Below, piece by piece: positions 11,830 through 30,441 of a stretch of DNA of 64,000 nt. The stretch covers positions 4,512,001-4,576,000 of the forward strand of contig OZ241986.1 in the NCBI GenBank assembly GCA_965204375.1, written 5' to 3'. This stretch comes from Candidatus Latescibacterota bacterium (lineage in GTDB: Bacteria > Latescibacterota > UBA2968). How positions within the stretch are numbered: position 1 is the stretch's first letter; every line of letters begins with the position of its first letter. The notes beneath the pieces were generated by a model, which searched no databases, was not told where the DNA came from, and saw nothing but the letters and a program-made list of their open reading frames with translations. The position numbers and the translations under genes are program-made.

Positions 11830-11855
11830 AGCCTGTATCAACGGAGACACGAAAA

Positions 11856-13942: not shown

Positions 13943-16015
13943 TTGCCACAACTCGAACACATTGAAGTCATTGAAAAACGCCTCTGGGGAGCAGCCGATA
14001 ACCTGCGCGCCAACTCCACTTATGCCAGCAACGAATACTTTCTCCCGGTCATGGGCCTGGTATTCCTGCGCTATGCGTACAGCCGCTACCTATCTGTAAA
14101 AGACGCCATTGAAGCCAATCTGCCCACCCGCGGCGGTAAGAAACGAGCACTCACCAAAGAAGACTTCTCGCAGAAAAACGCCATCTACCTCCGGCCCAAC
14201 GCGCAATTTGACCACCTCGTCGCCTTGCCCGACAGCGAGGATCGCGCCAAAGCCGTCATCACAGCAATGGAATCCATTGAAGCCGACTACGAAAGCCTCC
14301 GGGGGGCACTGCCCAAAAGCGAATACCAGGAACTGGACAACGACGTTCTCGGCCAACTCCTCCGCACGCTCAACCCCGACGAACTAAAACAGGTCTCTGG
14401 CGATGTCTTCGGGCGCATCTACGAATACTTTCTCACCCAGTTCGCCGACGAAAAGGCTCACGACGACGGCGAATTCTTCACCCCCGTCTCACTCGTCTCC
14501 CTAATCGCCCATGTACTCGAACCCGACTGCGGCACAGTACTCGACCCGGCCTGCGGGTCTGGCGGCATGTTCGTGCAAAGTGCGCGTACCGTCGAGGAAC
14601 AAGGGCAACATCCCACCGAACAACTCACCTTCCGCGGCATAGAAAAAAACGCCACCACCATCCGCCTTGCCAGAATGAACCTCGCAGTGCATGGCCTTGA
14701 AGGCGACATCCGCCAGGCCATCACCTACTATGAGGACCCACACGAATTACTCGACAAAGCCGACTACGTAATGGCCAATCCGCCCTTCAATGTCGATGAG
14801 ATCGACGCCGACAAAGTCAAAACCGACCCACGCCTACCCTTCGGCCTGCCCGGCGTCAATCAAAACAACAAAGTCAGCAACGGCAACTACGTCTGGATCA
14901 GCTACTTCTATGGCTACCTGAACGAAACGGGCCGCGCAGGCTTTGTCATGTCCTCCCAAGCATCCAGTGCTGGCGGCAGCGAAGCCGAAGTGCGCCGAAA
15001 ACTGGTAGAAACCGACGATGTAGAAGCCATGATCGCCATTCGCTCCAACTTTTTCTACACCCGCACCGTCCCCTGCGAATTGTGGTTTCTCAACCGCGCC
15101 AGACCCGAAGCCCACCGCGACAAAGTACTGATGATCGACGCCCGCAACATCTATCGCCAGGTCACGCGCAAAATATACGACTTCAGCCCCGAACACGAAA
15201 AAAACATCCTCGCCATTGTCCATCTCTATCGCGGCGAAACCGAGCGATTCCGAGACCTGGTATTCAACTACCTGCAGAGCATTCTGGAAGAGAGCCATGC
15301 GTGCTTCAAGATCAACGATGGTGAAACCATCCACCCCCTACCCGACTTCGTCAACGCACTCATCCAATTGCACGACCTGATCGCGCTATCCCTGAAAACC
15401 CTGCCGAAAAACGGACAGCATACCGAAATCCTCACCGAGTACGACAAAGCGCGAACAGCGTTCCCCGAGGCCATTGAACAATTCCGCACCGCCATCACAG
15501 AAACCGCACCCAATACCAGCACCGACCTGAACAACCAGGTGGCAGAATTCGCCCCCCTGGTCGAAATTAGTCGCAACCTATCCGAACGCACTGACAGCCT
15601 CTACAAACTCGCCATCCGCGTAACCGATATCTGCGAAAAGGCAGGCACAACCAATAACAGAAGCGAAATCACCCGCGCCCGCAGAACAGCAGACGAGACG
15701 CGGCAGACCACAGTCGAACAACTCAAACAGGTAAACTACTTCTACCAGCAAGCGCAATGGCTCATTAGACGTTTCCCCGAAGCGAAACTATGCGACGTAG
15801 AAGGCCTGGTCAAACTGGTAGATCGCGCCGAAATCGAAGCCAACGACTGGAGCCTCACCCCTGGCCGCTACGTCGGCGTTGCACCCGAAGAAGAAGACGA
15901 AAATTTCGACTTTGCAGAGACCCTGCGCGAAATCCACGACGAAATAGAAGAACTCAACATCGAGGCCGTATCATTGGCAGCCACGATCAAGCGGAACTTT
16001 GAAACACTACTTTGA
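13943..16015 (+). CDS. hsdM: Type I R-M N6-adenine methyltransferase subunit
   Basis: LWGAADNLRAN, GEFFTP, DPACGSGG, ANPPFN, SLTPGRYVG; TTG start. Confidence 0.95.
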   Translation: MPQLEHIEVIEKRLWGAADNLRANSTYASNEYFLPVMGLVFLRYAYSRYLSVKDAIEANLPTRGGKKRALTKEDFSQKNAIYLRPNAQFDHLVALPDSEDRAKAVITAMESIEADYESLRGALPKSEYQELDNDVLGQLLRTLNPDELKQVSGDVFGRIYEYFLTQFADEKAHDDGEFFTPVSLVSLIAHVLEPDCGTVLDPACGSGGMFVQSARTVEEQGQHPTEQLTFRGIEKNATTIRLARMNLAVHGLEGDIRQAITYYEDPHELLDKADYVMANPPFNVDEIDADKVKTDPRLPFGLPGVNQNNKVSNGNYVWISYFYGYLNETGRAGFVMSSQASSAGGSEAEVRRKLVETDDVEAMIAIRSNFFYTRTVPCELWFLNRARPEAHRDKVLMIDARNIYRQVTRKIYDFSPEHEKNILAIVHLYRGETERFRDLVFNYLQSILEESHACFKINDGETIHPLPDFVNALIQLHDLIALSLKTLPKNGQHTEILTEYDKARTAFPEAIEQFRTAITETAPNTSTDLNNQVAEFAPLVEISRNLSERTDSLYKLAIRVTDICEKAGTTNNRSEITRARRTADETRQTTVEQLKQVNYFYQQAQWLIRRFPEAKLCDVEGLVKLVDRAEIEANDWSLTPGRYVGVAPEEEDENFDFAETLREIHDEIEELNIEAVSLAATIKRNFETLL

Positions 16016-16049
16016 AGTGGGAAGTGGGAAGTAGGAAGTGTGAAATGTG
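16013..16049 (+). repeat. Heptamer array beginning in the hsdM stop codon
   Basis: tgaagtg ggaagtg ggaagta ggaagtg tgaaatg. Confidence 0.8.
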
Positions 16050-16290
16050 CTGCCGCCTGGGATGACCGCCAAATTGTGCAAGAGATACTTGCACAAATCC
16101 CCTGAAATCATTGCTTGATGCGCCATCCCGACGATGCTTTGATGGGTGAAGCGATGTATGAAGGCGAGTAATTCGAGCATGACTGGTTGCCTGCCAAGCC
16201 AACTGTGCAGCAACTCGCTGCACAATTTCCATTGGTCGAATCGCTGTTGACCGTTGAAAAGACAGAGCAGGAGCTAAAGGGCACTGGGGA
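16049..16290 (+). pseudogene. Collapsed remnant of DUF1016/YhcG-like nuclease gene
   Basis: Fragments translate as AAWDDRQIVQEILAQIP, TVQQLAAQFP and SLLTVEKTEQEL, resembling N- and C-terminal YhcG motifs. Confidence 0.55.
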
Positions 16291-16295
16291 GATGC

Positions 16296-16829
16296 ATGAA
16301 CGCCAAGAAAATCATTATTATCGCGGGGCCAAACGGAGCTGGCAAAACGACTTTTGCACAGGAGTATTTGCCCAACGAAGCGGATTGCCCTATTTTCGTT
16401 AATGCCGACCTGATAGCAGCGGGACTATCTCCCTTTCGTCCTGCTGACGCGGCCATCCGCGCCGGGCGGCTGATGCTGGAGGAAATTGACAACCACGCCC
16501 GCGCAGGCAGAACTTTCGCCATTGAAACGACGCTATCTGGACGGGGTTATGTGAGAAGGATCCGTCAATGGCGCGCTGATGGTTACACCGTAAAGCTCAT
16601 ATTTCTGTCTCTTGCAACGCCCGAAGAAGCAATCACGCGCGTAAAATCGCGCGTAAACCAGGGCGGGCATGATGTCCCAGAAGCCGTTATACGTCGTCGT
16701 TTTCACGCGGGCTTGCGGAACTTTCAGGACATTTACCGACATTGCGTTGACGATTGGTTTTTGTATAATAACAGTGGCACAATACCCATCCTTCTGGAGA
16801 AGAAAAACGATGATGAAACAACCGTCTGA
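16296..16829 (+). CDS. Zeta-toxin-like P-loop ATPase (COG4185-like)
   Basis: IIAGPNGAGKTT, FVNADLIA, FAIETTLSG, RVNQGGHDVP. Confidence 0.88.
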   Translation: MNAKKIIIIAGPNGAGKTTFAQEYLPNEADCPIFVNADLIAAGLSPFRPADAAIRAGRLMLEEIDNHARAGRTFAIETTLSGRGYVRRIRQWRADGYTVKLIFLSLATPEEAITRVKSRVNQGGHDVPEAVIRRRFHAGLRNFQDIYRHCVDDWFLYNNSGTIPILLEKKNDDETTV

Positions 16830-17001
16830 AAAAGAGCTAACAAAGCCCGACAATGATGAAGAAGGCATGACTGCCGCGCTTATACGAGCCGCCAAACGCG
16901 CGCACCAAATCGCGCATCAGACCGGCACCAAAGTTGTGGTCATGCGTGATGGCAAAGTCGTGGAAATTGATCCAGATCCAAAGATGTACAACGACATTTG
17001 A
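16810..17001 (+). CDS. Small partner protein of zeta-like ATPase (putative antitoxin)
   Basis: 63 aa, overlaps ATPase 3' end; AALIRAAKRAHQIAHQTGTKVVVMRDGKVVEI pattern. Confidence 0.65.
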   Translation: MMKQPSEKELTKPDNDEEGMTAALIRAAKRAHQIAHQTGTKVVVMRDGKVVEIDPDPKMYNDI

Positions 17002-17006
17002 GATTG

Positions 17007-17110
17007 AAGGGCGAGTATGTAAAAGACAATGCCCACTTCAATTCTATCGAATCGTTGTGGGCACTGGTCAAGCGCGTATATGTCGGGATACACCACCACT
17101 GGAGGCGGTC
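17007..17110 (+). mobile_element. IS1595-family transposase fragment
   Basis: Translates GEYVKDNAHFNSIESLWALVKRVYVGIHHHW, matching the IS1595 GEYV..HTN.IE.FW..LKR...G.YH motif. Confidence 0.7.
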
Positions 17111-17120
17111 CCTTGTTTTT

Positions 17121-17459
17121 TTACGTGCCGTTCAAAGTGCCTAAATAGGTCACTATACTGACTATTACACCAATACCGATAAGAATTATCGTTACAAGTT
17201 TAGTCACGAAGTCTCGCCTGTCTCTGGTGTCATCTTTTATTTCATTTTTATACTCTCTAATGGCTTCTTCTTTTGTTTGAATATCTCTGACTGTTTTTTC
17301 TACCTCATCAATTTTATCGCGTATTTTGTCAACTTTATCTTCAAGTCGGCGCAGCCCCTCCATAATCCAATTCAAAGGCCCCAATTTGTCGCCATCATCT
17401 TTGGGCAAGGCATTTGATTCGTTGGGTATTGTGGAATCATTTTCATGATCAGGCATCAT
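17121..17459 (-). CDS. Small coiled-coil protein with C-terminal TM helix
   Basis: Heptad run LEDKVDKIRDKIDEVEK, hydrophobic C-terminus; overlaps upstream ORF; AT-rich. Confidence 0.65.
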   Translation of the reverse strand: MMPDHENDSTIPNESNALPKDDGDKLGPLNWIMEGLRRLEDKVDKIRDKIDEVEKTVRDIQTKEEAIREYKNEIKDDTRDRRDFVTKLVTIILIGIGVIVSIVTYLGTLNGT

Positions 17460-17751
17460 AAACCTCTAACCATTCCCAAAGGCTTTTCTTGGCATAACCA
17501 AAATGGCTACTAACGCGCATAACCACACCAGAGCCTATCTTGGAGTCCTCTTTGCCATATCCGAGTTTATTGCTTAATTCTCGCGCTGTCCCCTCATAGG
17601 TTAAAAAATAGATGTCCGGGGCATGTTCGTCATACACATGAACAGGGGGAAGCAGAGCCGCACTGTCTCGGTTTAATAATTTTTGCACCTCTTCCTTTAA
17701 TGCCAAAGATTCATCTTCGGTAAGGTGCACGGGCACAATAGCATAAAGCAT
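17449..17751 (-). CDS. Hypothetical protein
   Basis: 100 aa, AAGGA RBS, overlaps the 17121-17459 gene. Confidence 0.6.
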   Translation of the reverse strand: MLYAIVPVHLTEDESLALKEEVQKLLNRDSAALLPPVHVYDEHAPDIYFLTYEGTARELSNKLGYGKEDSKIGSGVVMRVSSHFGYAKKSLWEWLEVYDA

Positions 17752-17976
17752 TTTAATATTCCTTTGATTACTTGACTTTATGGCAGTAACTTTTTTGAAA
17801 ATATACGTACGTGAACAGACAAGGACAACCCAAAAGGACCATGTCCACGTACCTTTTTTGTGCTATTTTCTCCTCGTACAGAGCCAGACGTACCCGTTCA
17901 TCTGTACTACTTTCCTCAGATTCATCGTACATCGGTAAATGAATACCAGAGCATATTATACCCTAAGCAAAACCAA

Positions 17977-18195
17977 AGCAAATATCAGGCCAATATCACA
18001 GCATCGCGTGACAAATTGCATGGATAGCGATCAAATACCTTTATTATGCCTTCAATATGCTGTATTGCCCCCTTTTTTTCAACTCGAATTTACGGATCGC
18101 CTGTTTGGCGCAGAACAATCTCTGTATATTTTGAGCGATACAGGGGCGATAATGTGAAAGATATGTACCACTTGCCTATATGTCCGCTACGGTGT
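17977..18195 (+). repeat. ~220-bp diverged dispersed repeat, copy A (copy B 45736-45974)
   Basis: Shared blocks agcaaatatcaggccaat, cagcatcgcgtgacaaattg, atatgctgtattgc, tgtatattttgagcgat, gtgaaagatatgtacc. Confidence 0.85.
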
Positions 18196-18291
18196 AAAAC
18201 GCTCAAATGAGATAGAGTATTTCTGCCCATATATGCAAAGGTGGCACGATTTCGCATGATTCGCTACATTTATTGCATAGGGAGATCGAAA

Positions 18292-18564
18292 ATGAATGAA
18301 AGAAATAGAAATATCGGTCAAGAGATTCTATCTGGCCTACAGGAAATCAAGCGCGGCGAACACGGTCGTATCATTACAGTACCTGATATTGCCCAAACGA
18401 GAGCGAAAGTGGGTCTTTCTCAAACTCAGTTTGCCCAATTGATGGGTGTATCTGTTCGAACGCTGCAAGATTGGGAGCAGGGTCGCCGTCGTCCATCGGG
18501 TGCTGCCCGGACACTATTGATAATCGCAGACAAAAACCCGCAAGCGATATTAGATGTGATGTGA
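18292..18564 (+). CDS. XRE/HTH antitoxin-like regulator (orphan)
   Basis: RAKVGLSQTQFAQLMGVSVRTLQDWEQGRRRPSGAARTLL. Confidence 0.85.
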   Translation: MNERNRNIGQEILSGLQEIKRGEHGRIITVPDIAQTRAKVGLSQTQFAQLMGVSVRTLQDWEQGRRRPSGAARTLLIIADKNPQAILDVM

Positions 18565-18683
18565 GAACCTGTAATCCCTTTGCTGAGTATCTCCGGGAAT
18601 ATTGGGGGACTGTTGAAATTGAGCACCTATGGTAGAAGTGTGAAGCGGTGTATATTGTTGCCTCGTGGAAAAAAGGAGGATAT

Positions 18684-19178
18684 ATGAAAACTCAACAATT
18701 GAAAGTCTGGAGGTGGACATCAACGGGATTTCGAAGAACAGATGGTGCTTCGGTTATCGCAGAAGGGCAGACCACGACTTATGCGACATCGGCGGGGTGG
18801 CGTTTTCAAAACCGATCTGAAATGATTGCAGCAATAAAAGAAGGATTGCCAGTAGCGACATTTGACGCATTAAAAAATGCTATGGGCATTTCTGAACAAG
18901 CTCTGGCCTCTGTGACTAAAATTGCGATACATACACTGACACGTCGAAAAAAAGAAGGACGGTTGCATATTGATGAATCGGAACGACTGCTGCGTATTGG
19001 TCTGCTGTATGATCGGGCTGTAGAGGTCCTGGGAGGACAGGAAGTTGCTCGTCAATGGTTTGCAACGCCATTAACTGCCCTTGGGCGCGTTTCTCCACTG
19101 GATTATGCAGATACCGAACCAGGTGCTCGAGAAGTTGAAGACCTTCTGGGACGCATTGAGTACGGGGTATTTTCATGA
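18684..19178 (+). CDS. Xre/MbcA/ParS-type antitoxin (DUF2384)
   Basis: TLTRRKKEGRL, ESERLLR, WFATPLTALG, GAREVEDLLGRIEYGVFS; AAGGAGG RBS. Confidence 0.88.
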   Translation: MKTQQLKVWRWTSTGFRRTDGASVIAEGQTTTYATSAGWRFQNRSEMIAAIKEGLPVATFDALKNAMGISEQALASVTKIAIHTLTRRKKEGRLHIDESERLLRIGLLYDRAVEVLGGQEVARQWFATPLTALGRVSPLDYADTEPGAREVEDLLGRIEYGVFS

Positions 19179-19345
19179 TGCTGACAGCGTGGTTCAACAG
19201 TGGTGATTCAGCGATCCTTGCTGTCCCCAGCGTTATTGTACCTGTAGAGACAAATTATTTGATCAATCCTCTTCATCCCGATTTTGAAAAAATAAAGATA
19301 GGAGGACCTGAGCAATTTGAATACGATCTGCGTTTAGTGAAATGA
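19175..19345 (+). pseudogene. RES-domain toxin with large in-frame internal deletion (56 aa)
   Basis: ATGA overlap with antitoxin; MMLTAW joined directly to FNSGDSAILAVPSVIVPVETNYLINPLHPDF. Confidence 0.8.
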
Positions 19346-19415
19346 GTGTTTCGAGACATTGATGATCCGGTGGCATTTCAACGAAATCTTCGGACCAATA
19401 AGGTCGGAAACTGCG

Positions 19416-20024
19416 ATGACAGAAACGATAAACAAAACGCGAATATTCACTGTAGGACACTCGACACATGCATTTGAGGATTTCGTCTCCATCCTGAAAC
19501 AACATGGCGTGGATGCCATTGCAGACGTGAGGTCGGTTCCATATAGCCGTTGGCAACCGCAATTCAATCGCGAACACCTAACGGAAGCCCTGAAGACCCG
19601 GGGTATTGCCTATGTTTTCCTCGGCGAGGAACTCGGCGCACGCAGTGACGATCCAAAGTGTTACGAGAACGGCCGGGTGCAGTATCGCGCGCTCGCCGAA
19701 ACCCCGCTGTTTCAATCCGGAATAAAGCGCGTCCGAGACGGGAGCAAGAGCAGGCGCATTGCCTTGATGTGTGCAGAGAAGGATCCCCTGGATTGCCACC
19801 GCACAATTCTCGTCGCTCGCGAATTGGTGGCAAGTGGCGTAGATGTCGCACACATTCTTGAAGATGGATCACAGGAACCACACGATGAGACCCTGAAACG
19901 CCTGTCTGAGCAGTTGCGATTGCCAGCACAGGATCTGTTTCTTACCCCTAATGAATTGGAAGACCGGGCATACGCGGCACAGGAACAGCGCATTGCGTAT
20001 GTTGAGGAGGAGACTACACAATGA
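19416..20024 (+). CDS. DUF488 family protein
   Basis: IFTVGHS, ADVRSVPYSR, YVFLGEELG, ALMCAEKDPLDCHR. Confidence 0.9.
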   Translation: MTETINKTRIFTVGHSTHAFEDFVSILKQHGVDAIADVRSVPYSRWQPQFNREHLTEALKTRGIAYVFLGEELGARSDDPKCYENGRVQYRALAETPLFQSGIKRVRDGSKSRRIALMCAEKDPLDCHRTILVARELVASGVDVAHILEDGSQEPHDETLKRLSEQLRLPAQDLFLTPNELEDRAYAAQEQRIAYVEEETTQ

Positions 20025-20164
20025 AAATTTTCACCATTGGCTTCACCAAAAAAAGCGCAGAGCAATTCTTCAATAGCTTGCAAACAGCGGGCGTCAAGCG
20101 AGTCGTTGATGTGCGGCGTAGCGCGATTTCGTGTAATTCCGTACATTTATCACATAAGGGATGA
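20021..20164 (+). pseudogene. Truncated second DUF488 gene
   Basis: ATGA overlap; MKIFTIGFTKKSAEQFFNSLQTAGVKRVVDVRR then similarity breaks at the 30-bp motif (20118). Confidence 0.75.
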
Positions 20165-20415
20165 CAACCATGAAATTGATTGAGAAAGAAATCATCATTG
20201 CCAAAGACGGCAAACTTCCTACAGACTTTCGCGAGGCATTTGGTCGAAAGGCTCGTGTTGCTATTTATCTTCAGGAAGACCAAAAAGAAAAAACAGAAGG
20301 TGCAGATATCCTATCGGATCTCGATGGCAAAATTCAAGCGTTTCGAGACATTGATGACCCAGTGACGTTTCAACGAAATCTCCGGGCTGAATGGGATCGG
20401 GGTTGGGAGAAATGA
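20161..20415 (+). CDS. Small antitoxin-like protein (orphan)
   Basis: 84 aa ending DPVTFQRNLRAEWDR, like antitoxins that precede PIN toxins; the following ATG opens only 12 codons. Confidence 0.55.
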   Translation: MTTMKLIEKEIIIAKDGKLPTDFREAFGRKARVAIYLQEDQKEKTEGADILSDLDGKIQAFRDIDDPVTFQRNLRAEWDRGWEK

Positions 20416-20520
20416 ACTCTGAAAACTCGCGCCGCTGGTGCGAGAAATAGGTTGGTCGTATAAGAGAACCAACGTAATAAACTTGTAGAAGAAATTTGAG
20501 ATGAGAAGGAGTTGTGATCT

Positions 20521-21573
20521 ATGAGCTGGACGGAACTTCAATTCAAAGATTTCGTGACACTACAAAGAGGTTTTGATTTACCAAAGGCCCGTATGGTGGA
20601 TGGTGTTGTCCCTGTCCTCGGATCGAAATCCATCATTGGCTTTCACAATGAAGCGAAAGTGGAAGCACCCGGAGTAGTCACAGGCAGATCAGGATCATTA
20701 GGTTTGGTTCAGTATTCGGAGCAACCGTTTTGGCCTCATAACACTGCCCTTTGGGTAAAGGATTTCAAAGGAAACAGTCCTCGGTTTGTTTACTATAAGC
20801 TTCAGACCCTCAATCTGGAGAGATTTAATGGCGGTGTATCCGTCCCGACACTAAATCGAAATGTGTTGGACACACTCCCCGTCAAAATTCCTAAACGTAC
20901 CTTACAAGACCGCATCGCTTCCATCCTCTCCACCTACGACAACCTGATCGAAAACAACCGGCGGCGGATTCAATTGCTGGAACAATCAGCGCAGCTACTC
21001 TATAAGGAATGGTTCGTCCACCTCCGCTTCCCCGGACATGAACACGTCACCATAACCGATGGCGTGCCGGAGGGATGGATGAAAAAGCCATTGGGCGAAA
21101 TTGCTCCCCTAAATTATGGAAAGGCACTCAAAAAAGATGATCGAATACCTGGACCGGTTCCCGTCTTTGGTTCAAGTGGGATAATCGGAACACATGAAAA
21201 ATCACTTGTTCCCGGCCCCGCGATCATAGTGGGCAGAAAAGGCAATGTCGGAACCACTTACTGGAGCCAGGACGACTTCTATCCAATCGACACTGTATAT
21301 TTTATCGAAGCCAGGTATTGTTCTATTCACCTGTATCATGCTTTGCTTAACACGCAGTTCATCAATACAGATGTCGCGGTTCCGGGCCTGAACCGGGACT
21401 TTGCACACAGCCGACTGCTACTCGTGCCAGACAACAAAATCCTCATACTATTTGAACAACACGCCACAGAAATTTATGAGCAGATCAATCGCCTGACAAA
21501 ATACAACCAAACACTCACCCAGGCCCGCGACCTGCTCCTACCGCGGTTGATGAATGGGGAGATTTCAGTATGA
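20521..21573 (+). CDS. hsdS: Type I R-M specificity subunit
   Basis: Two TRDs, central QDRIASILSTYDNLIENNRRRIQLLE...LYKEWF, C-terminal RDLLLPRLMNGEI. Confidence 0.95.
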   Translation: MSWTELQFKDFVTLQRGFDLPKARMVDGVVPVLGSKSIIGFHNEAKVEAPGVVTGRSGSLGLVQYSEQPFWPHNTALWVKDFKGNSPRFVYYKLQTLNLERFNGGVSVPTLNRNVLDTLPVKIPKRTLQDRIASILSTYDNLIENNRRRIQLLEQSAQLLYKEWFVHLRFPGHEHVTITDGVPEGWMKKPLGEIAPLNYGKALKKDDRIPGPVPVFGSSGIIGTHEKSLVPGPAIIVGRKGNVGTTYWSQDDFYPIDTVYFIEARYCSIHLYHALLNTQFINTDVAVPGLNRDFAHSRLLLVPDNKILILFEQHATEIYEQINRLTKYNQTLTQARDLLLPRLMNGEISV

Positions 21574-24500
21574 ATCAATCTGAACTTCGTCAGGAACTCG
21601 ACCGTCTATGTGAACTTCCGCACGAGACAGAATGGCTCGAGTTCAAAGAAGCTCAAAATCAGTATGACTTCGATAAGTTGGGCAAGTATTTCTCTGCCCT
21701 ATCCAACGAGGCCAACTTAAAAAAGCAAGCGTGTGGCTGGTTGATATTGGGCGTAAAAGATGATCGTTCGGTTTGCGGCAGTCAGTGGTTCCACGAAAAT
21801 CCAGCCAAACTTGACAAGTTGAAAGAGGGAGTTTCCAATCATACAACCGGCAACCTCACATTTGATGAGATTTATGTGCTCAATCACCCAGGTGGCCGCG
21901 TTGTCATGTTCAAGATTCCGCCCGCCTTACAAGGCATTCCAACCGCCTGGAAAGGACACTGGTATGGACGCAATAGCGAGTCCCTTGGTGCGCTCAGTTT
22001 GCGAGAAATAGAGACAATTCGATTGCAGTCTTCTGACGAGCATCAAACTAATTCAGACTGGAATCAGCACGAATACGCTTCTGAACTGGCGATTGCCAAC
22101 CTTCTTGGCGCATGGAATGAGCTAAACGAAGCCGATTTAGAAATTGTGTGTCAACTTGTCAATGATGAGGATTACGCAAAGTGGATCCCCAAACTGAGGG
22201 AAATGTTACAACAAGCGATAAGCCCTGTGACGTTCATGAATGGAAGATGGCAGGTCATTGATCGAAAAGGAATGTGGCAGGCATTAGGTGGACGTGTTTT
22301 TGATGATACATTGGATGCCCTGAAACAGTGCGCGGTCACGGTATTGTCCGAGCGCGATCCTCAGTTTGACTTACCCTCCGATGAACGTTATGCCGCCAAT
22401 ATCTATAAAAAGGTATTGAAGTACTCAACCGGGCTTCGGAAAGGATTAGCTGAAACGCTGGTACTGCTCGGCACTAATCCCGATGCTCTGACACATTTCT
22501 CACCACGACATCAGGGTTGGAAACCAAAAAATACGGCAGGTCGTGCAGTTCGCGAAATTCTCGAGAATGCGGATTGGGTATTGTGGGGTAGCCTCAATGA
22601 TTTTCTCCCTGTACTGGCAGAAACAGACCCTCGTGAATTTTTGGATGCTGTAGAAAATGCATTGGACAAATCCCCTTGCCCGTTTGAAGAACTGTTTTCA
22701 CAGGAGGGCAATCCTCCATTGGGGAGCAATTACCTCACTGGCCTACTGTGGGCATTGGAAACCCTCGCTTGGGATACTGAACATCTCGTCCGCGTGTGCG
22801 TAATTCTCGGTGAGCTTGCGGCGCGTGATCCCGGCGGTAACTCGTCGAACCGCCCTGCCAATTCACTGGCAGAAATTATACTCCCCTGGCATCCGCAGAC
22901 TACCGCACCCATAAAAAAGCGGGAAGTTGCCGTAAAAACGCTGATAAATGAGGTCCCGGATGTGGCCTGGAATCTATTGATCAGTCTTTTGCCAAATCAG
23001 CATCAGATGTCCTTTGGAACTCGCAAACCTAAGTGGCGAAATACCATTCCCGATAATTGGAAAGAGCGCGTGACTAAAGTGGATTACTGGAAGCAAGTTG
23101 ACTCTTATGCTGAAATGGCGATTGCTATGGCAAGTAATGACATTGATAAATTAACCGAGTTGGTAGGCGACCTCAATCGCCTGCCAAAACCTTCTCTGGA
23201 CAAACTTATCGAGCATCTGGCATCAGAAGAGATATGCGGAAAACCTGAAGATCAGCGTCTAAAACTCTGGACTCAACTAACTCAGCTTGCCTCAAAACAC
23301 AGACGTTTTTCTGACGCAGAATGGGCTTTAAGCGATAAGACCGTTTCCAAAATCGAAGATGTTGCTGCAAAACTCGCTCCTGAAAATCCATTCCATCTTC
23401 ATCGCAGATTATTTAGCCACAACGATTTGGATCTCTATGAAGGAACTTGGGGAGAGCCTCAACAAGCGCAAAAACTTGATCAACACCGTCAAAAACTCGA
23501 TCAACGCCGTCAGCAAGCGATAAAAGAGATTTTAGCTGGTGGTGGAATGGATATAGTATTTCAATTCGCCGAAAGTGTTGAGTCACCCTGGGATGTTGGC
23601 CGTTCTCTAGGTACTATTGCACAGGCGGAAACTGACAAACACATCCTTCCTGCATTGCTGGAAACAGAGAATACCAAACTCGCGCTACTCACAAGTGCTT
23701 ATGTCAGTTGTCGCCAAAATGTCAATGGATGGGAATGGGTTGATGGCTTTGACACCTCGAACTGGTCAGCCGCACAAATAGGTCAATTCCTATCCTATCT
23801 ACCCTTTACCAAAGAGACCTGGCGTCGCGCAACAGATTGGCTCGGCAAATCCGAAAAGGAGTACTGGCGCAAAACCAGTGCAAATCCCTACGAGACAGAG
23901 AGCGACCTCGGCTTTGCCATTGACAAATTGATTGAGTATGATAGACCCCATGCTGCTATCGCATGTCTGAGTAAAATGATACATAGTAACCAGCCATTGG
24001 ACAAAACCCGAAGTGTAAAAGCTCTTATGGATGCCATTTCTTCTTCAGAATCTCCCCAAGAAATGGATGCACATAACATCATTGAAATCATAGAGGCTTT
24101 ACAGGACGATCCAAACACCGACCCAAATGATCTCTTTCAAATTGAATGGGCCTACCTGCGCTTATTAAATCACCACACATCACCGAAGACATTGGAAAAC
24201 CGCCTATCTTCTAATCCAGAATTTTTCTGTGAAGTCATACGCATTATCTATCGGTCAAAAAAGGAAACGGAACCCGCAAAAGAATTTAGCGAACAGGATA
24301 AAGCCATTGCTGAAAATGCATACAAACTTCTTAATCAATGGAAGACACCTCCAGGAATGCAATCGGATGATCAATTTCTAGCGGAAAAATTTACGGAATG
24401 GCTTAACAAAACAAAAGAAGCGTGTGATGAATCCGGGCATCTTGAAGTCGCCCTTCTGAATATAGGAAAAGTTCTCATTCATGCGCCACTTGATCCAGAC

Positions 24501-24893
24501 GGGCTGTGGATAAATCAAACAGTCGCATCTGCGCTCAATGCAAAAGACGCGGCGAAAATGCGGGATGGTTTCTGGACAGGAATTTTCAACTCTCGCGGAG
24601 TTCAAACAGTTGACCCAACGGGAAAATCCGAGCGAGAGCTTGCCGAAAAATACAAACAAATGGCCGGAGAAGTTGAAAATGAAGGCTATCACCGCTTTGC
24701 TGTTACACTTAGGGAATTAGCAAAAGAATATGAGCGTGAAGCGGAAATATATATTGCTGAGCATGACGCAGAAATGAGAATGCTTCAGAACCAAAAACTA
24801 ATTGAACGGGAGAGTGCCCGAAGATTGGCACAACTCGGCGGAAGCGAGCCACAACTACAAGCTGTCCCGCGCCGTCGGAGTGATCCCGAATGA
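21570..24893 (+). CDS. 1107-aa protein: N-terminal AlbA_2, long helical region, C-terminal VapB-like tail
   Basis: ETEWLEFKEA...GKYFSALSN...LILGVKD (AlbA_2); GLLWALETLAW/NRP helical region; ends LIERESARRLAQLGGSEPQLQAVPRRR. Confidence 0.8.
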   Translation: MNQSELRQELDRLCELPHETEWLEFKEAQNQYDFDKLGKYFSALSNEANLKKQACGWLILGVKDDRSVCGSQWFHENPAKLDKLKEGVSNHTTGNLTFDEIYVLNHPGGRVVMFKIPPALQGIPTAWKGHWYGRNSESLGALSLREIETIRLQSSDEHQTNSDWNQHEYASELAIANLLGAWNELNEADLEIVCQLVNDEDYAKWIPKLREMLQQAISPVTFMNGRWQVIDRKGMWQALGGRVFDDTLDALKQCAVTVLSERDPQFDLPSDERYAANIYKKVLKYSTGLRKGLAETLVLLGTNPDALTHFSPRHQGWKPKNTAGRAVREILENADWVLWGSLNDFLPVLAETDPREFLDAVENALDKSPCPFEELFSQEGNPPLGSNYLTGLLWALETLAWDTEHLVRVCVILGELAARDPGGNSSNRPANSLAEIILPWHPQTTAPIKKREVAVKTLINEVPDVAWNLLISLLPNQHQMSFGTRKPKWRNTIPDNWKERVTKVDYWKQVDSYAEMAIAMASNDIDKLTELVGDLNRLPKPSLDKLIEHLASEEICGKPEDQRLKLWTQLTQLASKHRRFSDAEWALSDKTVSKIEDVAAKLAPENPFHLHRRLFSHNDLDLYEGTWGEPQQAQKLDQHRQKLDQRRQQAIKEILAGGGMDIVFQFAESVESPWDVGRSLGTIAQAETDKHILPALLETENTKLALLTSAYVSCRQNVNGWEWVDGFDTSNWSAAQIGQFLSYLPFTKETWRRATDWLGKSEKEYWRKTSANPYETESDLGFAIDKLIEYDRPHAAIACLSKMIHSNQPLDKTRSVKALMDAISSSESPQEMDAHNIIEIIEALQDDPNTDPNDLFQIEWAYLRLLNHHTSPKTLENRLSSNPEFFCEVIRIIYRSKKETEPAKEFSEQDKAIAENAYKLLNQWKTPPGMQSDDQFLAEKFTEWLNKTKEACDESGHLEVALLNIGKVLIHAPLDPDGLWINQTVASALNAKDAAKMRDGFWTGIFNSRGVQTVDPTGKSERELAEKYKQMAGEVENEGYHRFAVTLRELAKEYEREAEIYIAEHDAEMRMLQNQKLIERESARRLAQLGGSEPQLQAVPRRRSDPE

Positions 24894-25279
24894 TTTTGGT
24901 TGATACCTCAGTCTGGATTAATCATCTCAATCCTAAAGACCCAAGATTTAGTATTCAACATAGTGAACGACTTAAAACCCTGTTAAATGATAACCAGGTA
25001 TTGGGTCATTCTATGGTAATTGGAGAACTGGCCTGCGGCAATTTGAAGGACCGCCAAACAGTGTTGACAGACCTCGAGAACTTGCCCAAGGCATCGGTTG
25101 CCACCGATGACCATGTGCTCTCCTATATTGAGCAAAAACAACTGATGGGTCGTGGTATCGGCTACGTTGATTTTCATTTATTGGCCGCCACAGAACTGAC
25201 TCGGTCAACCGAACTTTGGGCACTCGATGGACGGCTTATGGATGTGGCTACTGAACTAAATCTCGCTTACCAAATTTAA
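24890..25279 (+). CDS. vapC: VapC PIN-domain toxin
   Basis: MILVDTSVWI, GELACG, GRGIGYVD, WALDGRL; acidic residues intact; ATGA overlap with upstream gene. Confidence 0.9.
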   Translation: MILVDTSVWINHLNPKDPRFSIQHSERLKTLLNDNQVLGHSMVIGELACGNLKDRQTVLTDLENLPKASVATDDHVLSYIEQKQLMGRGIGYVDFHLLAATELTRSTELWALDGRLMDVATELNLAYQI

Positions 25280-25364
25280 GGACGAACCTCGGGCTGCACA
25301 GTCTCTTGCTTACGCTTGATAAACATGATAAGAAGGTTTGAAACAATATGTTCGGAGTTGGCGC

Positions 25365-26267
25365 ATGTCTGACGAGTACCCAATTGTTACAGTAGAACCA
25401 GAATGGAGGAGGAGGAGTGACCCCGAGGAAATGGGTACGAGAAAGAAATTCTGGTATAGCAAGCCCAAGCCCAATGACGAAACAAATTGGCTCTTCAAAC
25501 ATCCTCGACCAAACACAGGAGAACACTGGGCTGAGAAGATTGCCGCCGAGGTTGCCTCTGTGATCGGAATTAGACACGCGAATGTAGAACTGGCGAAGTT
25601 TCAAGATGAGCGCGGATCGGTGACAGAATCGTTTGCCCTCGGGGACGGGACGCTATACCATGGCAACCAAATGTTGGAAGTGACCATTGAAGGTTACAAG
25701 CTCCAGAGAAAGTTCCACCAGTCGAGTCATACTTTGGCTAATATCTGGAAGGTAATGGACTCTGTTTTTGTCAAGTCTGAAGATGCACAAGAAGAGAAAC
25801 TCATCATCGCTGAGTACCTGGTTTTGGATGCATTAATTGGCAACATAGATCGCCACCACGAGAATTGGGGCGTACTTCGATGGTGGGTAGATGACAGTTG
25901 GAGGGGTTTCGTAGCACCGTCTTATGACCACGCATCCTCGCTGGGACGAGAACTTTTGGATGCAAGACGTAATATGCTACTAACAGAGAATCGCGTAGGA
26001 GACTATGTGGAAAAAGGACGCGGTGCCATTTACTGGTCAGAGGACGAGCGATACGGCCCCAGTCCACTGGAATTGGTTCGAAGTGCAGCGGACATCTATC
26101 CAGAACTTTTTCATCCAGCGAGCCTGAAACTCGCAAAGATAGATGAAGAAGTTTTTAGTCAAATAGTCAATCGGATTCCTTCCGATTGGATGACTTCTTC
26201 AGCACGAATGTTCGCGATTGAGTTCATGCGCTATACTTATGAAAAATTACGGGAGATTTTTCGATGA
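25365..26267 (+). CDS. HipA-like Ser/Thr kinase
   Basis: MGTRKKFW, WLFK, GEHWAEK, DALIGNIDRHHENWG, APSYDHASSLG. Confidence 0.87.
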   Translation: MSDEYPIVTVEPEWRRRSDPEEMGTRKKFWYSKPKPNDETNWLFKHPRPNTGEHWAEKIAAEVASVIGIRHANVELAKFQDERGSVTESFALGDGTLYHGNQMLEVTIEGYKLQRKFHQSSHTLANIWKVMDSVFVKSEDAQEEKLIIAEYLVLDALIGNIDRHHENWGVLRWWVDDSWRGFVAPSYDHASSLGRELLDARRNMLLTENRVGDYVEKGRGAIYWSEDERYGPSPLELVRSAADIYPELFHPASLKLAKIDEEVFSQIVNRIPSDWMTSSARMFAIEFMRYTYEKLREIFR

Positions 26268-27016
26268 ATACAAAGACTTTATTCCTGGCGTGGCAGGATA
26301 AAAGAGGAGAAGTGAGCCGTCCTTGGTTTCCAGTGGGCAGGCTGGATGTCGAGCCGTCGTTTTATCGCTTTCGTTATATCCGCGGTGCGAAACGAGCCGA
26401 AAAGGAGCAAGGATTTCTTCCATTGCTCGATTTCCCCATTTTAACCTCAGAGTACCAATCCTCAGAACTCTTTCCGCTATTCAGAAATCGGATTATTGCG
26501 CCGGGGAGGCCGGATCGTTCGGACTATCTGAACAACCTCGGCCTTCCTGAGAATGCAGATCCGGTGGAGATCCTATCGGTAAGCGGTGGCTATCGGGTAA
26601 CTGATGCTTATGAGGTGTTTCCGAAGCTCGAGATGGATACTGACGGAAGTTTTATTTGTCGCTTCTTTCTCCATGGCTACCGTCATGTTAGTGAAACCGC
26701 TCTAAATAGAATTGAAGACTTAAAACCGGAAGAACAACTTTATTTAACACTGGAACTTACCAATCCAGCGACCGGCTTGGCGGTGCAAATCCAGACAACA
26801 GACTACCATATGATTGGTTGGACGCCGCGTTATCTCGTATCCGACCTCGCGAGGGCAATGGCCGATTGGCCAGACAAATACACGGCACAGGTGGTACAGG
26901 TCAATCCCCAATCAGCACCGATGAAACAGCGCGTTTTGATTGAGATGCGTGGCTACTGGGACCCACAGCATGAACCGATGAAAGGCAAGGATTTTCAACC
27001 TCTGGTTGGTGATTGA
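26264..27016 (+). CDS. HipA-N/HipS-like + HIRAN domain protein
   Basis: LFLAWQD...WFPVGRL...FRY...LFPLFRNRI, then FFLHGYRH, ELTNP, IGWTPRYL; ATGA overlap with kinase. Confidence 0.78.
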   Translation: MNTKTLFLAWQDKRGEVSRPWFPVGRLDVEPSFYRFRYIRGAKRAEKEQGFLPLLDFPILTSEYQSSELFPLFRNRIIAPGRPDRSDYLNNLGLPENADPVEILSVSGGYRVTDAYEVFPKLEMDTDGSFICRFFLHGYRHVSETALNRIEDLKPEEQLYLTLELTNPATGLAVQIQTTDYHMIGWTPRYLVSDLARAMADWPDKYTAQVVQVNPQSAPMKQRVLIEMRGYWDPQHEPMKGKDFQPLVGD

Positions 27017-27045
27017 TCGTTTATTTATTACAAGTATTGATTTTA

Positions 27046-27077
27046 CTGGATCGCGGCTAAAACCCTACCGCGATGAC
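27046..27077 (-). repeat. REP-like hairpin, copy 3 (inverted)
   Basis: ctggatcgcggctaaaaccctaccgcgatgac. Confidence 0.8.
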
Positions 27078-27129
27078 AGACCATAGTCAAGGCCAGAGTG
27101 AGAGCCAGAGTCACAGCCAGAGTCGCAAA

Positions 27130-30100
27130 ATGAACCCAACCCCCTACACCGAAGACACCCTCGTTCAACAGACCACAGCCGAGTACCTCGAACAGCAACT
27201 CGGCTGGGAATCCGTCTATGCCTACAACAGCGAGGACTTTGGGCCGGACAGTCTGCTCGGTCGCGCCTCTGACCGCGAAGTCGTACTCACGCGCTATCTA
27301 CTCACCGCGCTGCGAACGCTGAACCCCGGCCTGCCCGAAGACGCCTACAACGACGCAATCCGACAAATCACATCCACCACTGCTTCACAGAGCATCGTCG
27401 CAACCAACCGCGAAAAGTACGATTTCATCCGCAACGGCGTACCCATCAAATTTCGCAACGCCAATGGCGAATGGGTGCAGGAACGCCTCCGAATCTTCGA
27501 TTTTGAAACCCCGGGAAACAACCACTTCCTCTGCGTACGCGAACTATGGATAAAAGGCGACCTCTACCGCAGACGAGCAGACATCATCGGCTTTGTCAAC
27601 GGCCTGCCCCTCCTCTTCATCGAATGCAAAAACATCCACCGGGACCTGAAAGCCGCGTACAACGGCAACTACTCGGACTACCGCGACACCATCCCCCACA
27701 TCTTCCACCACAACGCCATCGTCCTGTTTGGCAACGGCGAAAAAGCAAAACTCGGCTCCATCACCAGCGAATGGGACCACTTCCACGAATGGAAACGCCT
27801 ATCCGAAGAAGAACCCGGCGTCGTCGATATGGAAACCCTCCTCAAAGGCGTCTGCAACAAACGCGACTTCATGGACATCATAGAAAACTTCATCCTCTTC
27901 GACGACACATCGGGTGAAACAAAGAAAATCCTCGCCCGCAACCACCAGTTCCTCGGCGTAAACCGCGCAATTGAAGCCGTGCGCGACCGCAAAGTACGCC
28001 AGGGCAAACTCGGCGTCTTCTGGCACACACAGGGCGCTGGCAAAAGCTACTCCATGGTACTCTTCACCCGCAAAGTACACCGCAAACTCGGCGGCAACTT
28101 CACCTTCCTCGTCCTCACAGACCGCACAGACCTCGACACGCAAATCTACAAAACCTTCGCTGGCTGCGGCGTCGTAGATCACGACCGAGACCCCTGCCGC
28201 GCAGCAGACGGGCCACACCTGAACCAGCTATTGACCGAACACAAATCGCACATCTTCTCCCTCATCCAGAAATTCAACCAGGAAGACATAGATCCCAAAA
28301 AAGGCTACACCCAGCGCGACGACATCATCGTCATCACCGACGAAGCGCACCGCACCCAATACGGCAAGTTAGCAGATAATCTGCGCGTCGCCCTGCCCAA
28401 CGCAGCCTACATCGGCTTCACCGGCACACCCCTGTTCAAAGACGACCAGATCACGCGCCGCGTCTTCGGCGAATACGTCTCCACCTACGACTTCCAGCGG
28501 GCAGTAGAAGACAAAGCCACACTACCCCTCTACTACGACGCGCGCGGCGACAAACTGGGCGTAGCCATTGATAATTTAAACGAACGCATCGCCGAAAAAT
28601 TGGAAGAAGCCGAAATCAGCGACATCGACGAGGAACAGCACCTCGAACGAGAACTCAAACGCGCCTACCACATCATCACCGCAGGCAAACGCCTCGACCA
28701 ACTGGCGCGGGACTTCACGCGACACTACTCAGCCGCCTGGGAAACCGGCAAAGCCATGCTGGTATGCATCGACAAAATAACCTGTGTGCGAATGCACAGA
28801 TTGATTGAATTCTACTGGCAAGAACACATCGGAAAACTGGAAACAAGGCTATCGCGAATAACGGACGAAGAGGAGAAAACAGACCTTCAGCGGAAGATCG
28901 AATGGATGCGCGAGACCCGCGCAGCAGTCGTAATCAGCGAAGAACAGGGCGAAATCGAAAAATTCAACAAATGGGAACTGGACATCCTCCCGCACCGCAA
29001 ACTCATCAAAGAAGGCATAGACTTGCCCGAAACCATGAGAAACAAACCGCAGTATCGCAACAAGCAACGCATGGAACTGGACGAAGCCTTCAAAGACGAA
29101 GAACACCCATTCCGCATCGCCATAGTCTGCGCCATGTGGCTAACGGGTTTCGATGTCCCGTGCCTATCAACACTCTACCTCGACAAACCACTCAAAGCAC
29201 ACACCCTCATGCAAGCCATTGCCCGCGCCAACCGCGTGAACGAAAACAAAAACAACGGCCTGATCGTAGATTACTGCGGCGTCCTCGTACACCTGCGCCA
29301 GGCACTCGCAACCTTCGCTGGCACGCAACCGGATGGAGATAACGCACCGACCGACCCCGCAAAACCCGAAGAAGAACTCCTATCAGACCTCGCCGAAGCC
29401 ATCGCCCTATTGCGAGACTTCCTCGACAAACGCAACGCACCACTGGATGACATCATTGAAAAAACGGGCTTCCTCCGCAATGCGGCTATCGTAGCCTGCA
29501 AAGAAGCCGTCAACGAAAACGACGAAACCCGCAAACGCTTCGAAGTCATGTGCCGCGAAGTATTCAAAAAGTACAAAGCCTGCGTCAACGTGCCAAACGT
29601 CAACATCCATCGCGAAGATCGCGACGCCATTGACATCGTGTACAAAAGCCTCCAGCAAGACCGTGTTCAGGCTGACATCTCAGAAATCATAATGGAATTA
29701 CAGCGGGTAGTAGATGCGGCCATTGAACCGAGGCTCAGTAATGTGGCTGAAAATCCGCATCCTGATGAAGATCGACGTCCTTACGACATCAGCCAGATAG
29801 ACTTCGAGCGTCTGAAGCGAGAATTCGCGCGTATCCAGGAAAAAAACACCACCGTTCAGAACCTCAGACAAGCAGTAGAACAAAAATTGCAACGACTATT
29901 GAAGCAAAACCCATTACGCACGGACTTTCAGCACCACTACGAAGAAATCGTCGCAGCGTACAACCGCGAAAAGGACCAGATAACAATAGAGCGCACCTTC
30001 GAAGCATTGCTCAAACTGGTGCAGGAATTGGATGAAGAAGAAAACCGGGCTGTTCGTGAGGGACTCGACGAAGAATCTCTCGCAATCTTCGACCTCTTAA

Positions 30101-30390
30101 AAAAACCCAACCTGAACGCGGGCGAAATCGCACAAATCAAAAAAGTGGCCGTCAGCCTGCTCAAAAAACTAAAAGTTAGCAAACTGCGCGTTCACCAATG
30201 GTGCGAAAAAGAAGCGACCCGGGACGCCGTGCGGACATCCATCTATGACTTTCTCTTCAGCGACGAAACCGGCCTCCCTCACAAATACACAGAAAAGGAC
30301 ATAAAAACAAAAACCGAAGACGTCTTCCGCCACATCTACCGAGCCTACCCCAAATTACCATCGCCATATTACGACAATGCTGCCGCTTGA
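27130..30390 (+). CDS. hsdR: Type I R-M restriction subunit
   Basis: RADIIGFVNGLPLLFIECK nuclease, WHTQGAGKS, DRTDLDTQI, DEAHRTQ, GFTGTP, MWLTGFDVP, QAIARANR. Confidence 0.96.
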   Translation: MNPTPYTEDTLVQQTTAEYLEQQLGWESVYAYNSEDFGPDSLLGRASDREVVLTRYLLTALRTLNPGLPEDAYNDAIRQITSTTASQSIVATNREKYDFIRNGVPIKFRNANGEWVQERLRIFDFETPGNNHFLCVRELWIKGDLYRRRADIIGFVNGLPLLFIECKNIHRDLKAAYNGNYSDYRDTIPHIFHHNAIVLFGNGEKAKLGSITSEWDHFHEWKRLSEEEPGVVDMETLLKGVCNKRDFMDIIENFILFDDTSGETKKILARNHQFLGVNRAIEAVRDRKVRQGKLGVFWHTQGAGKSYSMVLFTRKVHRKLGGNFTFLVLTDRTDLDTQIYKTFAGCGVVDHDRDPCRAADGPHLNQLLTEHKSHIFSLIQKFNQEDIDPKKGYTQRDDIIVITDEAHRTQYGKLADNLRVALPNAAYIGFTGTPLFKDDQITRRVFGEYVSTYDFQRAVEDKATLPLYYDARGDKLGVAIDNLNERIAEKLEEAEISDIDEEQHLERELKRAYHIITAGKRLDQLARDFTRHYSAAWETGKAMLVCIDKITCVRMHRLIEFYWQEHIGKLETRLSRITDEEEKTDLQRKIEWMRETRAAVVISEEQGEIEKFNKWELDILPHRKLIKEGIDLPETMRNKPQYRNKQRMELDEAFKDEEHPFRIAIVCAMWLTGFDVPCLSTLYLDKPLKAHTLMQAIARANRVNENKNNGLIVDYCGVLVHLRQALATFAGTQPDGDNAPTDPAKPEEELLSDLAEAIALLRDFLDKRNAPLDDIIEKTGFLRNAAIVACKEAVNENDETRKRFEVMCREVFKKYKACVNVPNVNIHREDRDAIDIVYKSLQQDRVQADISEIIMELQRVVDAAIEPRLSNVAENPHPDEDRRPYDISQIDFERLKREFARIQEKNTTVQNLRQAVEQKLQRLLKQNPLRTDFQHHYEEIVAAYNREKDQITIERTFEALLKLVQELDEEENRAVREGLDEESLAIFDLLKKPNLNAGEIAQIKKVAVSLLKKLKVSKLRVHQWCEKEATRDAVRTSIYDFLFSDETGLPHKYTEKDIKTKTEDVFRHIYRAYPKLPSPYYDNAAA

Positions 30391-30441
30391 AGTGTGAAGG
30401 TAGAAGTTAGAAGTTAGAAAAAGGAAAGAGAAAGGAAGAAT
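30388..30441 (+). repeat. Heptamer array (left arm) starting in the hsdR stop codon
   Basis: tgaagtg tgaaggt agaagtt agaagtt agaaaaa ggaaaga, degenerating toward the ORF. Confidence 0.8.

Follow-up and report, generated by a model that had tools for sequence, protein, structure and literature searches.

Type II antitoxins are usually seen as small repressors in which a DNA-binding domain is joined to a short neutralising segment. What, then, is such a segment doing at the end of a protein of 1107 amino acids? The question is raised by a locus in a 64,000-nucleotide stretch of a Candidatus Latescibacterota bacterium genome (GenBank assembly GCA_965204375.1, contig OZ241986.1, positions 4,512,001 to 4,576,000, forward strand), which we refer to as the window and whose positions are used below. 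Here a gene that follows hsdS of a type I restriction-modification (RM) system encodes a Schlafen/AlbA_2 protein with a VapB-like end and overlaps a gene for a VapC toxin. An earlier interpretation made from the DNA letters without database searches (the sequence-only reading) had proposed that this tail works as an antitoxin, that the large protein may hold and release the toxin as a guard, and that an accidental deletion fusion was equally possible. We find the fusion to be genuine and inherited within a bacterial genus, and we favour, at a probability of roughly 0.6, the reading that the fused tail serves as the antitoxin of VapC in an accessory or addiction module.

By homology the tail is the C-terminal, toxin-binding half of VapB. 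It is identical at 28 of 30 residues to the C-terminus of a free PF09957 VapB (P0350; E 1e-17), a likeness far beyond chance that bears out the resemblance first noticed by eye in the last ~30 residues. When used as a query against a database of 5.8 billion proteins, the tail matched PF09957 proteins with E values down to 9.1e-8, and it matched the VapB genes of genomes G106 and G107 (E 2e-7 and 3e-7). It aligns without gaps with 19 free VapBs over their C-terminal halves of ~35 residues and retains all seven positions that are invariant in that alignment, and fourteen of its positions are invariant across 24 fused homologues. Its layout comprises an ERESARRLAxL segment, predicted by analogy to be helical, a GG turn and an extended Arg-rich end (PRRR). 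The non-fused VapC homologues of the phylum were preceded in 25 of 25 cases by a free VapB of ~65 aa that starts with MRTTLNIDD and finishes with the same end motif as the tail. Two of these free VapBs matched Pfam PF09957 (E about 1e-17) over residues 1-46, mostly the ribbon-helix-helix (RHH) region. That DNA-binding RHH half is absent from the fusion, the tail beginning after the PF09957 RHH region.

Family models did not detect the tail. Pfam found only SLFN_AlbA_2 in the 1107-aa protein, NCBIfam matched neither the protein nor the tail, and a Pfam search with the last 80 or 46 residues returned 0 families at E ≤ 10, PF09957 included. The Pfam model misses the tail because the RHH half is absent and what is left is the part of VapB at or beyond the end of the model. 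As the sequence-only reading had stated, there is no separate vapB; none was found upstream of vapC in the window, and in the whole 6.34-Mb genome the tail itself was the sole significant match to free VapBs of the family (E 6.5e-9). A weak VapB match at 855 kb was judged spurious. The genome contains only one VapC of this kind.

The partner gene is intact, again as first described. The stop codon of the large open reading frame (ORF) overlaps the vapC start in an ATGA at 24890-24893, an arrangement seen in all five fused loci that carry vapC. The encoded 129-aa protein matched Pfam PIN (E 1.7e-5, 25.8 bits, cut-off 23.6) and the NCBIfam VapC model (E 3.8e-7, 30.2 bits, under the 80-bit cut-off). 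Among its acidic residues D5 and E46 are invariant and D94 is conserved in at least 90% of an alignment of 23 homologues, and D113 is present; a PDB sequence search found no match for the protein. VapC homologues occurred in 35 of the 168 genomes of the phylum, and we examined 30 of their neighbourhoods, 5 with the large tailed protein upstream and 25 with a free VapB. Five single ORFs of 164-223 aa (P0128, P0148, P0170, P0171 and P0173) combine PF09957 and PIN; they are read-through fusions of VapB and VapC or else artefacts of gene calling.

The fusion is not a property of one assembly. The window's genome is a metagenome-assembled single contig, and in three sequencing runs of one study, which may derive from the source sample itself, contigs cross 21000-25566 or 21000-27200 with zero differences. 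In a scan of the 168 genomes of the phylum, tail-bearing orthologues were present in 9 of the 21 genomes of one Latescibacterota genus, the window's own genome included; all nine are metagenome-assembled. When relatives of the large protein were clustered at 90% identity, the full tail was present in 56 of the 120 closest clusters and a partial one in 4, the other 60 being tail-less, and a relative headed by a TIR domain (P0074) bears the same tail. Because the fusion recurs in genomes and protein clusters and the junction is spanned by contigs, an artefact or a private deletion is excluded. Thus the suggestion that an accidental fusion unique to this assembly was equally possible did not hold.

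Other fusions of this kind were also sought. With the tail as query, all matches of at least 900 aa among the best 120 of 138 belonged to this one family. Outside the phylum, the tail was seen in 0 of 72 large-protein loci (the C-terminus being visible in 67), and a PIN gene lay directly after the large gene in 0 of the 63 loci in which a downstream ORF was scanned. The downstream gene of tail-less members is variable and never an adjacent PIN gene. A free-VapB query at longer lengths yielded 71 matches, all of at most 342 aa and mostly N-extended ORFs or VapB-PIN read-throughs, in a search insensitive enough to miss the known fused family. With a profile of the VapB C-terminal half, 1118 clusters among 1.84 billion representatives scored E ≤ 1e-3; the best 150 were all 40-155 aa, a set in which long fusions are invisible. 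A scan of JGI metagenomes produced four loci, none of them a close tail-bearing relative. In a sponge-metagenome run of another study (X4) we observed pieces of tail and vapC at 90-95% similarity. Placed on window positions 21000-27200, this run also gave a contig joint that skips 21576-25344, the large ORF plus vapC; the joint hints that the pair may be an insertion or deletion unit, but we do not trust it, such joints being unreliable at 90% likeness.

The origin of the fusion was examined with trees of both partners. The five VapCs encoded behind fused tails form one clade (support 98/96). Its sister group (98/93) consists of the VapCs of G106 and G107, the genomes with the most tail-like free VapBs (75% identity over a 28-aa core). 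Within the fused VapC clade the window's group is split from the group of G084 and G091, and the same split is the deepest supported one in the tree of the large protein (100/100). Since the VapCs form one clade and the deepest split is shared, the large gene and vapC have been co-inherited since a single fusion. By these phylogenies the fusion has a single origin, after which the pair diverged to about 62% identity in the large protein and about 60% in VapC. The fusion joint directly follows the family's native C-terminus: remoter relatives end a few residues past a conserved AEH, some close tail-less relatives (P0061, P0063 and P0069) terminate within the 12-residue linker, and short-form homologues are without the linker. 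The base of the large-protein clade is a polytomy, compatible with any of these states as the ancestral one.

The fused pair occurs in three contexts, namely a type I RM operon, CBASS-like genes and a DNA methylase. It follows hsdS in five of the nine fused genomes, with an ATGA link in the window's own genome and in loci L001, L002, L011 and L012. Two fused loci that are not in any type I RM system lie beside CBASS-like and IrrE/helix-turn-helix (HTH) genes (L009) and beside a gene for a 918-aa DNA methylase (L014).

The tail is under purifying selection. In all 36 pairwise codon comparisons of the nine genomes, the tail had fewer nonsynonymous than synonymous differences per site (pN < pS), and its pN/pS ratios resemble those of the body, for which dN/dS was 0.19-0.36. 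Because synonymous changes accumulate in the tail and replacements do not, the constraint acts on the protein. The toxin gene is intact in five of the nine fused genomes and deleted in the other four with the tail kept. In two of these only the first ~13 vapC codons are left; the other two have the final four vapC codons fused in frame to the tail. The two deletion types fall in different subclades of the large-protein tree. A search of the phylum's VapCs found no other VapC of this family in the four vapC-less genomes. Conversely, intact vapC behind the large gene was always accompanied by the tail (5/5 loci). Loss of vapC with retention of the tail is the pattern expected of a toxin-antitoxin pair. 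One tail position also differed between the two sets of genomes. The Leu before GGSEP (L1089 in the window protein) is invariant in all free VapBs; at this position Arg is present in three of the four vapC-less genomes (L112, L115 and L117) and in none of the five vapC-bearing ones, loci L111, L114, L116, L118 and L119 being without Arg. Arg at this position was also present in 19 of the 56 tail-bearing clusters.

We propose the following explanation for these observations. An ancestral vapBC cassette of the PF09957 type would have lain directly downstream of a candidate defence gene that encoded the Schlafen domain and the large body. One deletion would then have fused the native C-terminus of the large gene in frame to the second half of vapB, with loss of the DNA-binding half and retention of the toxin-binding half. 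From then on the product of the overlapping gene, the VapC PIN RNase, would have had the 1107-aa protein as its sole antitoxin. If the pair resembles VapBC complexes of known structure, the tail helix would pack on the side of VapC, with the extended Arg-rich end placed in the active-site groove. Such an arrangement of helix and extended Arg-bearing segment is how VapB inhibits VapC (PMC5389673), and a linear neutralising motif placed on an unrelated carrier (SUMO) neutralised its toxin in vivo (PMC10440598). Transcription and translation of vapC would now be tied, by the ATGA overlaps, to those of the upstream operon, and VapB autoregulation has presumably been lost. Loss or truncation of the large gene would be costly while vapC is intact, and the module could be shed toxin-first. 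The large protein's own function would be independent of the VapC module.

Within this scheme, neutralisation of VapC through the tail is most likely, since the tail has both elements, a predicted helix and an extended Arg-bearing segment, with which VapB inhibits VapC. VapC itself is most likely an accessory. We rank the accessory or addiction role above a sensor-triggered release because vapC is easily shed and the family works without it. The claim that the fused tail works has thus gained from the purifying selection, from the co-divergence with VapC, from the presence of the tail wherever vapC is intact and from the toxin-first losses; the guard component of the same claim has not. From this pattern we infer the toxicity of VapC, its binding and neutralisation by the tail, and an addiction effect.

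Several observations weigh against this explanation. The VapC score is barely over the Pfam cut-off and falls under that of NCBIfam. Counts drawn from the nine genomes are not independent, all nine being of one genus, and the contrast in Arg at position 1089 could reflect phylogeny or recombination. The tail is nearly unchanged in the vapC-less genomes and in the 19 clusters with Arg (mean 0.68 other differences in the Arg group versus 0.53). Unless vapC was lost only recently, such conservation would be unexpected of a tail whose sole job is to hold VapC. Finally, across 23 free pairs the likeness of VapB to the tail and that of the accompanying VapC to the window's VapC gave no significant rank correlation (rho 0.15, p 0.5).

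To weigh the alternatives it is necessary to consider the carrier. We found 1365 relatives of the large protein, with members in the genomes of 368 species of Bacteria and Archaea and on 75 plasmid records. The family combines a conserved body of ~900 aa, which includes a WALETLAW motif, with an exchangeable N-terminal module. The latter may be Schlafen/AlbA_2, TIR, a module of ~283 aa or one of ~370 aa, and proteins annotated as HTH regulators represent the family in rhizobial plasmids. PDB sequence and profile searches found no match for the ~283-aa and ~370-aa modules. The body had no Pfam, PADLOC or PDB sequence match, a PDB profile search of the whole family was blank, and the ESM Atlas returned hypothetical clusters only (at 0.86-0.87). 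No PADLOC model matched the large protein or its relatives of ~1180 and ~1270 aa, and the family is missing from PADLOC 2.0. In the window protein the Ex4ExK motif of the Schlafen domain is intact (E19, E24 and K26; nt 21624-21647). Among 24 tail-bearing homologues these residues hardly vary, and the motif is present in 53 of 56 tail-bearing clusters. An Ex4(E/D)xK motif defines the prokaryotic Schlafen tRNases, which have been shown to be phage-defensive when fused to sensor domains (PMC13056530). By sequence, the 1107-aa protein is a candidate Schlafen-type phage-defence protein. At least one type I RM subunit was encoded within 6 kb in 30 of 80 family loci. A tail-less large-body paralogue is encoded in the same genome about 28 kb upstream of the window (locus L139; G000:C1:4484174-4485241), in an open frame of ~1285 aa with 42% identity over the C-terminal part.

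These features make a guard the strongest alternative. The body would sense a phage cue or be attacked by an anti-defence factor, VapC would be freed, and a second RNase would fire alongside or instead of the Schlafen nuclease, leading to abortive infection. The carrier family resembles a defence sensor with swappable N-terminal modules, two of them of unassigned type. Its setting is that of a defence island, given the type I RM subunits near many family loci and the CBASS-like genes beside one fused locus. Schlafen fusions with sensors are proven phage defences (PMC13056530), and PrrC-EcoprrI and PARIS provide precedents for a held and released RNase. The TIR-headed relative retains the same tail, and the pair has been maintained across about 38% protein divergence. 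Set against these points, vapC is gone from four of nine genomes with the large gene and tail kept, close tail-less relatives exist, and in the loci scanned outside the phylum neither the tail nor an adjacent PIN gene accompanies the family. Because tail-less relatives exist and vapC has been lost with the large gene kept, the family evidently works without VapC. The sequence-only reading had also given the coupling to hsdS a place in the guard mechanism. So far this is not supported, as the ATGA link to hsdS is confined to five of nine genomes and two fused loci lie outside type I RM systems. An integral released effector accounts for the loss pattern no better than an accessory or addiction module does. 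Overall, we consider sensor-triggered release of VapC unlikely, although it ranks second among the explanations. A specific form of it, a dead-man switch in which activation, degradation or blocking of the large protein by phage makes the tail release VapC and the PIN RNase stops translation, is doubtful to a similar degree. If true, it would be a natural toxin-antitoxin pair wired to a defence protein via a grafted linear neutralising motif, and the presence of this tail on the TIR-headed relative would demonstrate that different effectors can be wired in this way.

An inert remnant is less probable still. In such a case the tail would be frozen and non-binding, and VapC inactive, weakly expressed or harmless, with conservation arising from a constraint unrelated to VapC, such as a vapC ribosome-binding site inside the tail codons or a structural role in the large protein. 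A GGAG does lie 9 nt before the vapC start within the tail codons, the tail is conserved in vapC-less genomes, and the VapC family scores are modest. However, it is replacements rather than synonymous changes that fail to build up in the tail, which places the constraint on the protein. The acidic residues of VapC are intact and conserved, the tail retains 7/7 of the residues invariant among the 19 free VapBs, and an active pair is what one expects to lose its toxin first. We regard the remnant as improbable.

We also considered whether a separate small antitoxin is made from an internal start in the large ORF, the large protein being irrelevant to VapC. The long-linker forms do have two in-frame ATG codons, 39 and 37 codons before the stop, but these are missing from four of the five vapC-bearing loci. 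Three of those loci have only a TTG, which would cut the helix and is without a conserved Shine-Dalgarno (SD)-like sequence, and in L119 a GTG accompanied by an SD-like sequence lies 38 codons from the stop. With no start common to all five, this possibility is very unlikely. An assembly or annotation artefact, or a one-off deletion, for which we found nothing in favour, is refuted by the eight other genomes, the 56 of 120 clusters and the contigs from three runs.

The features of the locus are collected in the table. Pfam, PADLOC and ORF reading together delimit a defence island at window positions ~9.3-30.8 kb, in the order Fic, a Schlafen-HATPase gene, a PLD nuclease, hsdM, a zeta-toxin-like kinase, toxin-antitoxin debris, hsdS, the 1107-aa ORF, the PIN ORF, PDC-M03A/B, hsdR and a 23S_rRNA_IVP gene. 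The neighbours of the 1107-aa ORF within 12 kb thus include hsdM/S/R, PDC-M03A/B, the PLD nuclease, Fic and a second Schlafen gene.

Table. Features of the fusion locus, in window positions.
Feature	Position	Strand	Basis
hsdM, type I methyltransferase	13943..16015	+	PADLOC MTase_I E 4.5e-250
hsdS, type I RM specificity subunit	20521..21573	+	Pfam Methylase_S E 2.9e-25; PADLOC Specificity_I E 3.3e-87
1107-aa fusion protein: Schlafen/AlbA_2 N-domain, ~900-aa body, linker, VapB-derived tail	21570..24893	+	ORF
Schlafen/AlbA_2 nuclease domain, aa 19-138	21624..21983	+	Pfam PF04326 (SLFN_AlbA_2) E 5.5e-13
Conserved body, about aa 160-1065	22047..24764	+	family alignments
Linker, 12 aa, D1066-L1077; inferred fusion joint	24765..24800	+	indel among homologues
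VapB-derived tail, I1078-E1107	24801..24890	+	alignment with free VapBs
vapC, PIN-domain toxin, 129 aa	24890..25279	+	Pfam PIN
PDC-M03A (HipA_C-like) and PDC-M03B (HIRAN), candidate defence pair	25338..27016	+	PADLOC E 3e-84, 6.3e-80; Pfam
hsdR, type I restriction subunit closing the hsdS-hsdR interval	27073..30390	+	PADLOC REase_I E 2.7e-160

The stop codon of hsdS overlaps the start of the 1107-aa ORF in an ATGA at 21570-21573. PDC-M03A (a HipA_C-like kinase) and PDC-M03B (HIRAN) are separate from the fusion but inside the same hsdS-hsdR interval, between vapC and hsdR, and they hold the same position in L002, L011 and L013. The coupled junctions of hsdS with the large ORF (21557-21575) and of M03A with M03B (26251-26269) share a common 19-nt string, GGGAGATTT..ATGAAT, at 79% identity, which may merely reflect similar ribosome-binding sites. 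A promoter scan of the locus gave no signal above shuffled sequence, Rfam found no family within 16000-31000, and a repeat search found no flanking repeats marking a cassette.

A further defence cluster precedes hsdM and consists of Fic (9280-10263), Schlafen (10312-11829) and PLD-family nuclease (11826-13895) genes, the second Schlafen protein being of the common AlbA_2 + HATPase_c_4 + Fic-like_C/winged-HTH type. Directly after hsdM is an ORF for a zeta-toxin/AAA_33-like kinase (16296-16829), beside which no antitoxin was identified. The toxin-antitoxin debris (18241-20415) includes an MqsA-like HTH antitoxin (18241-18564) with no toxin visible, a DUF488 gene (19359-20024) and an 84-aa ORF (20161-20415) without a family match. 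It also includes an intact antitoxin of the Xre/ParS type (18648-19178), after which comes a RES remnant of 56 aa (19175-19345; profile positions 110-155 of 157). The remark that the other orphaned toxins of the window are deleted was checked in part, with this RES remnant as the case observed.

These results bring to attention a widespread family, as yet unnamed, in which a large conserved body bears a Schlafen, TIR or other head. Within it a neutralising segment has moved to a 1075-aa candidate immune protein and been kept while the proteins diverged substantially. Should the tail work, nature would have provided a clean test of whether a linear neutralising motif suffices on any carrier. 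The fusion would also be a direct physical link of a toxin-antitoxin pair to a defence protein, and would make the debated trigger of toxin release approachable with a two-gene construct. A search of the open-access full-text literature turned up no publication on a large protein that ends in a VapB tail.

The closest known relatives are VapBC systems with a PF09957 VapB, such as the free cassettes L086 and L087 and M. tuberculosis VapBC15 (PDB 4CHG). Like these, the locus has a PIN toxin gene that directly follows and overlaps a gene with a VapB segment; the tail is 75% identical over the 28-aa core to the L086/L087 VapB, and the VapC is sister to the VapCs of those cassettes. As in a VapBC pair, there is a PIN fold with its acidic residues, an upstream coupled antitoxin coding sequence and, by sequence, homology in the toxin-binding region. 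Unlike in these systems, the RHH half that binds DNA and dimerises is replaced by about 1075 aa of unrelated protein, and because of this replacement the classical repressor function and hetero-octamer architecture cannot apply. The similarity to VapB15 of 4CHG is weak (E 0.045, RHH part only), and VapC had no PDB sequence match.

The partners of the tail call to mind other defence systems. The large protein resembles the prokaryotic Schlafens (pSlfn) of PMC13056530 in its N-terminal PF04326 domain with Ex4(E/D)xK, in the large non-catalytic domain fused to it and in its defence-island location, but differs in a ~900-aa fused body that has no Pfam, PADLOC or PDB sequence match. VapB, VapC and PIN are not mentioned in the main text and the 11 of 26 supplementary files covered, and none of the pSlfn proteins tested is described there as having an antitoxin tail or a PIN partner. 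In PrrC-EcoprrI, the type Ic RM enzyme EcoprrI keeps the PrrC anticodon nuclease (ACNase) latent. A latent RNase gene inside a type I RM cluster that is silenced by its partner is common to both cases and offers a conceptual model of phage-triggered release. PrrC, however, combines an ABC ATPase with the ACNase and is silenced by the RM enzyme, whereas here the RNase is a 129-aa PIN protein only and is probably silenced by the tail, and an RM system is absent from two fused loci. In PARIS the AriA scaffold holds the AriB Toprim tRNase. The idea of a large sensor that sequesters and releases a tRNA-cutting toxin is the same, release being purely hypothetical here, but neither protein of the fused pair has an ABC ATPase or Toprim domain or matches a PADLOC PARIS model.

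The nearest parallel to the graft itself is provided by PanA with Phd-C and by the engineered SUMO-Phd-C (PMC10440598). In these, as most likely in the window, a short C-terminal neutralising element sits on a foreign carrier, with the other domain proposed to be a sensor. Their carriers are small (Panacea and SUMO) and their toxins are Doc and toxSAS, whereas in the Latescibacterota fusion the carrier is a 1075-aa nuclease-bearing protein and the toxin a PIN protein.

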